A DNA stretch of 51,026 bases, taken from IMG/VR virus record IMGVR_UViG_2671180890_000005, positions 1 through 51,026 of that record; one strand, given 5' to 3'. Made by a program: the position numbers. This document shows positions 28,501 to 31,500 of the stretch, one piece after another. Position 1 is the first letter of the stretch. Each line of letters begins with the position of its first letter. The stretch comes from a virus (lineage: Duplodnaviria > Heunggongvirae > Uroviricota > Caudoviricetes).

Positions 28501-31500
28501 ATAACCGCGCAGGTTAACTACCTGCAGGAGTACATCAGGACGCAATGCCTGAAATAATTTTTTTGCAAATCACAAAGTCCATTTAATGAGCCTCGCGATG
28601 CGGGGCTTTTTGCAATAAATGCGTACCGCAACGCATGTTTTTTACACCGAACCTGCCCCTTTGGAATGGGCCTTTGAGGATACCAGTTAGTGCTGGCGAG
28701 CCTCGGTGGGCTGGTTTCCTATGCGGCAAAGGTTCATTTCAAATGGTAGGTAAACGTTATGAATATCGTGCCACTTAATTACAAAGGTGAAATTGTCAGT
28801 TTCAACACTGATGGTTGGATCAACGTCACAGGTGTTGCTGAGAGATTTGGGAAACGCATTGATAACTGGATGCGTTTGGCAGAAACGCTTGAATACGTTC
28901 GTGCTTTAGACGAAGCGTTGACCGGGAAAGAATCTCAAATTTTACATCCCTCACAATCGAGGTATGTAAAAACCAGCAAGGCACGAAAGGACAGGGGTGG
29001 TGGTACGTGGCTACATCCAAAACTTTCAGTTGCATTTGCCCGTTGGTGTGATGCTCGTTTTGCTGTGTGGTGCGACCTGCACATTGATAGTCTGCTTCGC
29101 GGTGAACTGACTGAGCAGCAGAAATATGAGCAAGCATGTCGCATTCGCGATGACCGGAAATCAAAAGCCAGCAATGGGGCAAGAGAGATGGCTCGCTGGC
29201 GATGGGATAAGCCGGTTATTGAAGCAAATGTTGAGTACTGGCGCGAGCAACTGCAGTTGACTCTCGATATCGCGTGCTGATGGCAAACGCAAAACTGCGT
29301 TAACGGAAAAATCAAAGCATTACGAGAACTGAGCAACAGCTATCCATTACAAAGCCCATCTACGGGTGGGCTTGATAATGAAACCGGAATTTATTCTTGG
29401 CAACCAGTTACGGCAGTACCGCGAAACAACCCAAGCCAGTAAGTGGGGGAAATAACACTGGCAGCCACTGAAAGATGAACCTCCAGCCTTATGGCAAAAA
29501 AGATTCTTTGTGGTGGCGGACTGATGGAAAGACATCCTAATCAAGCAACCACTCCACAGGGTCATAATTATGAACGACCAGCAAATCGAAAAAGAAATCG
29601 TTGAGAAAGGCAAAACCGCTCCGCGAGTTACCCCGCAGCACATCGAAGACGTGATTAAAAGCGAGCATTACTTTACTGCTTATGATGGACGAAATGGTGC
29701 CATTTCCAGCAACGAATATTGTGGCAGGGAAAAACCAGAAGAAGGCGATCGTGATTTATCACCATTGAAGTTGCTCACTTTCTGCGTACTGGTGCTGAAG
29801 AATGGCTTCACCGTCACCGGAGAGAGTGCCTGTGCAAGCCCGGAAAACTTTGATGCAGAAATTGGTCGGAAGATTGCCCGGCAAAATGCTGTAAACAAAA
29901 TCTGGATGCTCGAAGGTTACTTGCTGAAGCAGAAGCTAAGCGAACAGTAGTTATTACAAAAGCCATTCCCTACAGAGTGGCTTTGATAATGGCTTATACC
30001 CTACACGGGATAACTTAACTGATATCCCTTTTAACGGATAAACGGAGCCAACAATGGCAGAGATTATTCCCATGACTGAAGAACAGAAATTCCAGTTAGA
30101 GATTTACAAACTGGTCATGAACCAGAACGCAGCCGCAGAAGAAGCATTTCAGTTCATTGGCACTGACGAACTGAAGCTTGAGCTATTCAAAATTCACTTC
30201 CAGTCAGGCGGCGCTAATTCAGATATCACGACCCGCACTATCGAAGCGGTGCGTAAATCGAAGGAAGCGTTAGACCTGTTCACTACCGGAGCATAAACAT
30301 GGCGCGCCCAACGAAGTATCAAGAGGCGTATGCCGAACAGGCACGCAAACTGTGCTTGCTGGGCTATACAGACGCCGAACTCGCGGACTTCTTTGAAGTT
30401 AGCGAGGCAACAATCAACAATTGGAAATTGGAATATCCGGAGTTTTTAGAGTCCATAAAAAAGGGTAAGGCCGTCGCTGATGCAGAAGTTAGTGATCGTC
30501 TTTATCAACGCGCTATGGGCTTCGTGGCTCCAGACATCGATATTCGTGTTATTGAAAACAGAATTGTCGAAACTCCGCTTGAGAAGTATTACCCGCCTGA
30601 TACAACAGCTGCCATCTTCTGGCTTAAGAATCGACAGAAGGATAAATGGCGCGACAAGGTTGACCACGAGCTAACAGGCAAAGACGGCGGCGCAATCCAG
30701 ATTGAAACATCACCGATGAGCACTCTATTCGGAAAATGACCTCGATTAATCCTATCTTTGAACCGTTCATTGAGGCGCATCGCTACAAAGTCGCCAAAGG
30801 CGGTCGAGGTAGCGGTAAATCTTGGGCAATAGCTAGGCTTCTCGTTGAAGCGGCGCGTCGTCAGCCAGTGCGTATTCTCTGCGCTCGTGAACTGCAAAAC
30901 AGTATCAGCGATTCGGTAATCCGACTGCTTGAAGATACCATCGAGCGTGAAGGGTATTCGGCTGAGTTTGAAATTCAGCGTTCCATGATTCGTCATCTCG
31001 GAACGAATGCTGAATTCATGTTCTACGGCATCAAAAACAACCCGACGAAGATTAAATCGCTCGAAGGCATTGATATCTGCTGGGTGGAAGAAGCGGAAGC
31101 GGTAACGAAGGAATCATGGGATATCCTGATACCAACCATACGCAAGCCGTTCTCTGAAATATGGGTGAGCTTTAACCCGAAGAACATCCTCGACGATACC
31201 TATCAGCGATTCGTTGTAAATCCTCCCGATGATATTTGTCTGCTGACGGTGAACTACACCGACAATCCGCACTTTCCTGAAGTTCTCCGTCTGGAGATGG
31301 AAGAGTGTAAACGCAGAAATCCGACCCTGTATCGTCACATCTGGCTTGGTGAGCCAGTGAGCGCAAGTGATATGGCAATCATCAAACGTGAATGGCTTGA
31401 AGCCGCAACCGATGCGCACAAGAAACTCGGATGGAAAGCGAAAGGCGCGGTTGTTTCTGCGCATGACCCATCAGATACAGGGCCAGATGCTAAAGGTTAT

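Follow-up and report, generated by a model that had tools for sequence, protein, structure and literature searches.

Hairpins in the late operon of a P22/Sf6-like prophage form a conserved family that resembles T7 RNase III sites and lies at mosaic junctions

We analyzed two hairpins, here called hp1 and hp2, in a 51,026-nt stretch of viral DNA (positions 1 to 51,026 of IMG/VR record IMGVR_UViG_2671180890_000005; hereafter the window). The window is a P22/Sf6-like prophage and both hairpins lie in its late operon; that this operon gives rise to a late polycistronic transcript follows from what is known of P22 and lambda. hp1 and hp2 belong to a conserved structured family in the late mRNA of P22-, Sf6-, HK97/HK022- and Stx-type lambdoid phages. 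In the best-supported description, based on comparative analysis, this family would be a variant of the T7 R sites whose internal loop is of the 2x2 CA/GA type, and we suggest, with a confidence slightly better than even, that the two hairpins function as RNase III-type processing/stabilizer signals of the late mRNA and at the same time serve as recombination joints. The two elements, each identified by RNA folding, a structural descriptor and covariance models, are:

29345-29380, + strand: hp1
29949-29994, + strand: hp2

The sequence-only reading of this DNA had noted two strings at 29347-29380 and 29954-29992, each forming a 7-bp stem and together flanking a 126-aa open reading frame (ORF) at 29570-29950. 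Both strings are present at exactly these positions and the ORF is real; the stems are real as well, but their size was understated, since each element has an A/U-rich lower stem of 5-8 bp, then a CA/GA internal loop, and above it 9-10 bp of upper stem capped by a small loop. In hp1, a lower stem of 5 bp (29345-29349/29376-29380, CAUUA/UAAUG) is followed by the 2x2 internal loop (CA at 29350-51, GA at 29374-75), an upper stem of 9 bp (29352-29360/29365-29373) and the 4-nt loop UACG. In hp2, the lower stem comprises 8 bp (29949-29956/29987-29994), the internal loop has CA at 29957-58 and GA at 29985-86, and the upper stem of 10 bp (29959-29968/29975-29984) carries a 6-nt loop (29969-29974). The start codon of the ORF lies 190 nt beyond the end of hp1, and the outer stem of hp2 shares 2 nt with the ORF stop codon.

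Within the window the two hairpins stand alone. The window contains two copies of the frame TTACAAA-N(14-34)-TGATAAT, 100 shuffles contain none, and RNA folding gives -20.6 kcal/mol for each hairpin (z = -4.7 for hp1 and -5.3 for hp2 against dinucleotide shuffles). A structural descriptor (5-bp stem, CA, a stem of at least 7 bp, GA) matches only hp1 and hp2 on both strands of the 51 kb, against a chance expectation of 0.08. A covariance model built from lambdoid hairpins only (R1) scores hp1 at 60.8 bits and hp2 at 53.9 bits; the next-best match in the window is the opposite strand of hp1 (21.4 bits), and all remaining matches score at most 12.6 bits. As a loose scan of viral contigs the TTACAAA/TGATAAT frame was abandoned, its matches being near-exclusively chance matches in unrelated viruses; these contigs were later reused as a negative-control set. 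A Proteo-phage-1 match in Rfam at 29402-29466 (17 bits against a threshold of 42) was treated as chance.

Both stems covary across hundreds of lambdoid phages and prophages. We found at least 11 stem sequence classes, all of which have the same CA and GA in the internal loop; examples are CATTA-CA-AAGCCCA/TGGGCTT-GA-TAATG, TATTG-CA-GAGGCCA/TGGTCTC-GA-CAATG, CATCA-CA-GGGCGCA/TGTGCCC-GA-TGATG and CATTA-CA-AAGCGTC/GGCGCTT, and further upper stems are AAAGCCA/TGGCTTT, GCAGGCA/TGCCTGT and GAAGCTC/GAGCTTC. The lower stems are of the types CATTA/TAATG, TATTG/CAATG and CATCA/TGATG. Sequences that were anchored only on the flank, or only on the upstream gene, have the identical fold throughout with compensatory stem differences, and it is these flank-anchored and gene-anchored lists that provide the unbiased evidence for the structure. 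In an alignment of 36 sequences, two-sided changes are found at 13 of the 14 pairs, which none of 500 shuffles equals and no slid register approaches. Of 99 distinct variants, 94 have an upper stem of 9-10 bp; the helix as a whole comprises 16-20 positions. In total, these comparisons indicate that the hairpin structure is under selection. The abundant variants AAGCCTA, AAGCTCA and TGGTCTC retain pairing as G.U on the + (late-transcript) strand only, which suggests late-sense RNA, or that DNA strand, as the functional form.

The distribution of the elements has the same strand bias. Matches in phage records number 184 for hp1 and 80 for hp2 and include Sf6, HK620, HK022, HK544, mEpX1, P22, L, Emek, Stx2 phages and a Klebsiella phage; in the matching phages the hairpins invariably lie between the lysis and packaging genes and in late-gene sense, as does the element in 15 of 15 annotated phage loci. 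Some part of the interval 29290-30060 is matched in 2675 of 5426 complete Escherichia coli genomes, and at least 80% of it in only 132. A family member with a wholly different upper stem (AAGCGTC/GGCGCTT) is located at 1652-1695 of IMG/VR contig 3300003973_000053 (locus L021), a metagenomic viral contig that is otherwise unrelated, immediately behind a KilA-N/P63C gene; its positional conservation extends beyond the sampled enterobacterial phages.

The hairpins resemble the RNase III sites of phage T7 (R0.3, R0.5, R1, R1.1, R1.3, R4.7 and R18.5) in sequence as well as in architecture. The upper stem of hp2 (AAAGCCAUUC/GAGUGGCUUU) and that of T7 R1.1 (AAGGUCAUUC/GAGUGGCCUU) are equal at 17 of 20 nt, with the top 7 bp near-identical: T7 R1.1 reads AAGGUCAUUC-GCAA-GAGUGGCCUU-UAUGAU and hp2 reads AAAGCCAUUC-CCUACA-GAGUGGCUUU-GAUAAU. 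Similarly, hp1 of HK022 (AGCUCAUCUGCGGGUGGGCU) and T7 R1 (AGGUCAUCUGCGGGUGGCCU) agree at 18 of 20 nt, differ by one compensatory G-C to C-G swap and have the same UGCG loop. In the T7 sites the fold comprises a lower stem, an internal loop of 4x5 and an upper stem of 9-10 bp, and the two groups have in common the order of lower stem, internal loop, 9-10 bp upper stem starting with AAG and ending with CUU, and small loop, as well as their intercistronic location on the sense strand of polycistronic phage mRNA. That T7 R1.1 is a substrate of RNase III has been established by experiment (PMC1540722), and the site has been employed as an 'RNase III splice site' (PMC6615863); the existence of other T7 RNase III sites is documented in a passage of bioRxiv 10.1101/106799 that cites Dunn & Studier 1983. 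One criterion for signals of this type is that their proximal and distal boxes contain no antideterminant base pairs (Zhang & Nicholson; PMC1540722).

This similarity is reciprocal. When the lambdoid model R1 was run unfiltered on the whole T7 genome, R1.1 (5861-5884), R1 (3115-3134), R0.5 (1441-1465) and R18.5 (36830-36853) took ranks 1, 2, 3 and 7. Conversely, a covariance model for which seven T7 R sites were the sole input (model R2), run on the window with filters off, gave three matches in all, namely hp2 on the + strand (19 bits, aligned end to end through lower stem, loop and upper stem), hp2 on the - strand, and hp1 on the + strand (14.9 bits). In 15 related loci 31 of 33 R2 matches are the hairpins, with scores of up to 22.2 bits, and in the controls the model gave one match in 861 kb of unrelated viral DNA and a best score of 12 bits in phage lambda. 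Such a repeated reciprocal coincidence of positions does not plausibly arise by chance.

Combining the structural data with the likeness to T7, we suggest that (i) host RNase III would bind the helix of approximately 16-20 bp, (ii) it would cut at or beside the CA/GA internal loop, near the point where CUU-GA is followed by UAAUG and, by analogy with T7, at or just 3' of the GA, (iii) cleavage would split the lysis/accessory part of the late transcript from the packaging/head part and release the KilA-N and Acb4-like cistrons (see below) as discrete mRNAs ending in a protective 3' hairpin, and (iv) the elements of 36-46 nt, being conserved amid variable surroundings, could serve as homology patches at which recombination of phage or host origin would swap accessory and anti-defense cassettes. 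In the T7 R sites, the known cut lies 3 nt past the upper stem. The lambdoid phages differ from T7 in being temperate and in relying on a Q-antiterminated host polymerase, and cleavage of their hairpins is a prediction. No copy of the hairpins is present in phage lambda or in DLP12 and Qin, two cryptic prophages of K-12, and because DLP12 and Qin lack one the RNase III maps of K-12 cannot settle the question.

Several points weigh against this assignment. The internal loop of the lambdoid hairpins is a symmetric 2x2 CA/GA, whereas that of T7 is 4x5 (ACUC/UAUGA), and the lambdoid lower stem is shorter and flank-dependent. At only 5 bp, the lower stem of hp1 in the window gives 16 helix positions, a short helix for RNase III; compared with the 8 bp of Stx-type copies, this hp1 has lost part of its lower stem to flank replacement and may be a weaker site. 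The E-values in the cross-model searches (R2 on the window, R1 on T7) are weak, at 0.056-5.7, so that the argument is one of match positions. For the T7 sites other than R1.1 the coordinates, which we take to be those of Dunn & Studier 1983, have matching folds as their only support. Because the 36 aligned sequences were picked by the pairing descriptor, the figure of 99% paired positions is circular. Finally, Rfam searches with the gathering threshold, and with the cutoff relaxed to E <= 10, gave nothing relevant to the hairpins, and they are undescribed in the literature searchable by string and topic, with older papers on the P22 19-to-3 region outside its reach.

Alternatively, hp1 and hp2 could be rho-independent terminators of a leaky kind, which insulate a moron that was acquired and is transcribed independently and which the Q/gp23-modified polymerase reads through. 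Downstream of the stable, GC-containing stems lies UUGAUAAU or UUUGAUAAU, which gives TransTermHP-style tail scores of -3.2 and -3.8, although only if the U's of the stem are counted as tail; a simple terminator scan called neither hairpin. Among GenBank records the hairpins are unannotated save in that of phage Ayreon, where hp2 is labeled a terminator, and intra-late-operon terminators of unknown role have been reported for phage L (PMC8022706). In the P22/HK620/HK022 class, however, UUU is swapped for CUC with pairing kept, and the tail score falls to between -1.6 and -1.9; moreover, hp2 often comes directly after a strong canonical terminator, a position in which a second terminator would be superfluous. 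T7 R1.1 and R0.5 have better tails (-4.1) than the hairpins. Host polymerase nevertheless reads through R1.1 and R0.5 in the T7 early operon, which counts against termination at hp1 and hp2. This explanation also leaves the invariant CA/GA loop and the covarying lower stem unexplained, and it sits poorly with the moron it invokes, given the lack of a + strand promoter upstream of the ORF and an insertion boundary that is not hp1 (both detailed below). We regard this explanation as unlikely.

The gene between the hairpins bears on the same alternative. The 126-aa ORF matches PF13876 (E = 6.2e-35, 120 bits against a cutoff of 27) and has a weak match over residues 69-111 to PDB 9e4w, the crystal structure of SPO1 Acb4 (E = 0.007). 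PF13876 is the Acb4 family of viral sponges that sequester the cyclic-nucleotide signals of the cyclic-oligonucleotide-based antiphage signaling system (CBASS) (PMC11722364), and as judged by these matches the ORF is best described as an accessory counter-defense gene. That the gene is accessory and variably present, as the sequence-only reading implied, is borne out by comparison: elsewhere its slot is empty or is filled by a 23-aa, 57-aa or 80-aa ORF, by Acb4 variants or by two genes. The proposal of an independently transcribed moron is not supported. A scan of 27000-31000 found no sigma-70-like promoter on the + strand (weak or non-sigma-70 types lie outside the scan), and the homologous gene in other phages starts 14 nt after the T-run of a terminator, leaving no room for a promoter. 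These two findings make it probable that the ORF depends for its expression on the antiterminated late transcript rather than being an autonomous moron.

Nor do the hairpins go with the gene; they form a conserved framework: hp2 is found at an unchanged position in phages without the gene, and elsewhere the gene is found with no such hairpins around it. The latter had been named as the finding that would count against bracketing, and it applies in part to the 80 gene loci examined. Directly after the stop codon hp2 is found in 55 of them, an unrelated canonical terminator in 17 (a replacement that accords with a terminator function), other members of the hairpin family in 4 and none of these in 4; hp1 lies within 900 nt upstream in only 39. 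Exchange points do fall at the hairpins, but the acquired unit is not bracketed by them on its left side: relative to the empty slot of P22, HK620 and HK022 and the 23-aa ORF of Emek and HK544, the unit is bounded by 29537 on the left and by the 5' edge of hp2 on the right. Where the slot holds another cassette, a canonical terminator belonging to that cassette precedes hp2.

Some further observations concern this gene and its surroundings. The N- and C-terminal thirds of the Acb4-like variants compared across loci L138, L146, L129 and L150 are near-identical, and residues ~30-65 (~29660-29765) are swapped for an unrelated segment of other length, giving forms of 118, 123 and 126 aa; this intragenic mosaicism may change ligand specificity. 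Slot-mates of the Acb4-like gene (loci L200, L393, L143 and L150; L228) are a 57-62 aa ORF (MVSVNKD...FFDML...WKL) and an 80-aa ORF (MSEIDKIINGTC...), each with its own canonical terminator; given the neighbor that they replace, they are possible further counter-defense genes. On the minus strand, a sigma-70-like site at 29403-29375 (TTGCCA-17-CATTAT, 9 of 12 matches) has as its -10 element the reverse complement of the hp1 ATAATG arm and would drive antisense transcription toward the lysis genes. The idea that GATAAT itself acts as a -10 box was rejected; its spacing to a -35-like sequence varies with loop length, and the sole scan match is on the minus strand.

The hairpins coincide with mosaic junctions. 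Homology to other phages begins or ends exactly at hairpin edges; for example, Sf6-type phages are homologous from 29345 onward, i.e. from the 5' edge of hp1 (megablast breakpoint, query 786). At hp1 we counted 74 distinct flanking 30-mers at the 5' edge and 66 distinct 25-mers at the 3' edge, a few of which are chance 15-mer matches. The start of a hairpin often lies 0-3 nt past the stop codon of varied upstream genes, as in TAG followed by CCATTACAAAG after hkbL, TGA followed by CCATCCCAAAG after Rha and TAG followed by TTATTACAAAAG after the Acb4-like gene, which is as expected for 3'-end signals. The spacing from hp1 to the hp2 flank reflects what the interval holds. It is 11 nt in 19 loci, e.g. 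Stx2-1717, where a single hybrid hairpin (hp1 body and hp2 flank) replaces the interval, ~206 nt in HK022, ~264 nt in HK620 and ~312 nt in Emek and HK544 with the 23-aa ORF; it is 450-590 nt with the 57-aa or 80-aa ORFs and their own canonical terminators, 597-680 nt with the Acb4-like variants (118, 123 and 126 aa) and 866-921 nt with two genes. Between hp1 and the slot, the non-coding block of ~125 nt at 29412-29536 has almost no internal variation in 116 distinct flank contexts, is common to P22, Sf6, HK620, HK022, HK544 and others, and always lies immediately upstream of the accessory-gene slot or of hp2. Two small ORFs within this block were rejected as unconserved (ATG is ATA in HK022, and Emek has a frameshift), as were small ORFs that start at the ATG of ...GATAATG. 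None of the deletions from Sf6 experimental evolution involves the hairpin region.

These breakpoints, the variety of the hp1 flanks and the hybrid hairpin are what one would expect if the elements were pure recombination linkers that have no RNA function and spread by recombination between short shared sequences, an idea that has been proposed for the lambdoid 'bsq' boundary sequences (Sf6 record) and for the promoter-early stem-loop (PeSL) of T4-type phages (PMC2839356). Passive homology, however, predicts neither compensation in two stems, G.U pairs on the + strand, a fixed 9-10 bp stem and an invariant loop, nor the resemblance to T7 RNase III sites, and as a complete explanation we consider it very unlikely. 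A linker role is compatible with RNase III processing as a secondary consequence and is not strictly a rival to it.

hp2 is also part of a larger unit. The segment 29953-30042 (query 664-753) is a sharp-edged 90-nt module of hp2 and two small TTATCCC/GGGATAA repeats, and this hp2 module alone is the commonest isolated piece among the sampled E. coli records. This could indicate that the hairpins are the binding site of a factor other than RNase III, e.g. a regulator of packaging genes that would recognize the RNA fold or the DNA palindrome together with TTATCCC/GGGATAA, or a single-stranded DNA hairpin for cassette recombination. The invariant CA/GA, the conserved sequence of the lower stem, the joint travel of hp2 with the two conserved inverted repeats and the layout of a cassette with a 3' hairpin, which recalls integron attC sites, would fit such a role. 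On the other hand, no protein or recombinase is consistently linked to the elements, flanking genes and packaging systems differ (pac, cos and HNH types), the R''/R' consensus of attC is absent from the elements, and the likeness to known RNase III substrates offers the simpler answer; we accordingly give another binding factor little credence. The specific ideas of attC and of IS200/IS605-type single-stranded DNA hairpins were dropped for lack of consensus sequences and of a linked recombinase.

The half-sites of this module could form two small hairpins or inverted repeats, alternative 1:2/2:3/3:4 pairings or two DNA operators; they are conserved in sequence without covariation. Units of GTTATCCCC-N6-GGATAA recur directly after hairpins in many other contexts.

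Comparison with other systems helps to place the family. Like morons (Juhala et al. 2000; Cumby et al., PMC3594210), the gene here is an accessory gene that is present or absent between conserved late-operon neighbors and is flanked by hairpins; it differs in that no promoter of its own was detected, in that the hairpins are a conserved framework that persists without the gene, and in that a counter-defense gene would be expected to act in lytic growth and not in lysogenic conversion. PeSL (Arbiol et al. 2010, PMC2839356) and the bsq sequences of the HK620 and Sf6 records are likewise short and conserved, are in part stem-loops, mark the borders of genes that were inserted, deleted or replaced, and are thought to mediate modular shuffling by recombination; unlike them, the hairpins here have no promoter component, have a different sequence and are accompanied by evidence of selection on RNA structure, and hairpins of the hp1/hp2 type are not annotated as bsq in either the Sf6 or the HK620 record. 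Repetitive extragenic palindromic sequences (REP), bacterial interspersed mosaic elements (BIME) and attC sites are imperfect palindromes directly 3' of genes, and attC sites also have two paired boxes with an unpaired spacer and bound gene cassettes. In contrast to all of these, the hairpins occur in 1-2 copies per phage, with neither RAYT transposase nor IntI integrase and neither GTAG nor GTTRRRY. The conserved arms are CATTA and TAATG and not the attC core sites (RYYYAAC/GTTRRRY), and the annotated loci contain no integrase.

More tentatively, T7 and the lambdoid phages may share a single pool of RNase III signals that in temperate phages would act as portable cassette ends, giving each accessory or anti-defense gene (Acb4, KilA-N/Rha antirepressor-like genes and others) its own stabilized mRNA, excised from the late transcript, and doubling as joints for shuffling. 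Were this shared-pool model true, the region would be a defined and widespread hot spot for the exchange of counter-defense genes, part of which is detectable in about half of sequenced E. coli genomes. If the elements are indeed RNase III signals, the T7 signal family would extend to temperate phages and prophages, and the unexplained intra-operon hairpins of lambdoid late operons would acquire a concrete post-transcriptional mechanism. They would also bound a small accessory-gene slot, with an Acb4-family gene and several unknown small genes, which could aid the discovery of anti-defense genes, and would provide a sequence-level account of reshuffling in this part of the mosaic. The analysis would correct two annotation habits as well, by which the hairpins are labeled terminators and the gene 'anti-CRISPR' or 'hypothetical'.

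The order of the late operon around the hairpins is as follows:

27340-27663: holin (lysis genes)
27647-28123: lysozyme (lysis genes)
28120-28557: Rz (lysis genes)
~28590-28616, + strand: canonical intrinsic terminator GCCTCGCGATGCGGGGCTTTTT 3' of Rz, preceded by ATCACAAAG; tail score -4.6
28759-29280, + strand: KilA-N domain gene, filling the slot upstream of hp1
29412-29536, + strand: near-invariant non-coding block (from the comparison of flank contexts)
29537-29951, + strand: insertion/replacement unit of a 33-nt leader and the 126-aa ORF (from phage comparison)
29570-29950, + strand: 126-aa ORF, PF13876, Acb4 anti-CBASS sponge family (Pfam)
29994-30042, + strand: four alternating half-sites, TTATACCC / GGGATAA / ATATCCC / GGATAAA
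30054-30296, + strand: DUF2560 (P22 orf80) gene, downstream of the hp2 module
from 30299: small terminase
from 30736: large terminase
from 32079: portal

The terminator 3' of Rz, the equivalent of which is labeled as such in the Emek and HK544 records, forms the left edge of the first accessory slot, which here holds the KilA-N gene and in other phages Rha, hkbK/hkbL, Sf6 gene 65 or others. A third member of the hairpin family after Rz (28569-28625) was considered and rejected; the covariance model does not support it, and it is an ordinary terminator that has only the ATCACAAAG lead-in in common with the hairpins.

Elsewhere in the window, a search for tRNA and tmRNA genes found none. Two + strand matches exceed the Rfam gathering threshold, isrK at 2063-2140 (68.9 bits) and C4 antisense RNA at 2221-2308 (81.1 bits), and together correspond to an antisense immunity module of the P1/P7 type. 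Near the right end of the prophage, at 48760-48983, the heptanucleotide AAGACTC is repeated perfectly in tandem 32 times (224 bp, 100% matches); as the unit is not a multiple of three, this repeat is a candidate tract for phase variation by slipped-strand mispairing.

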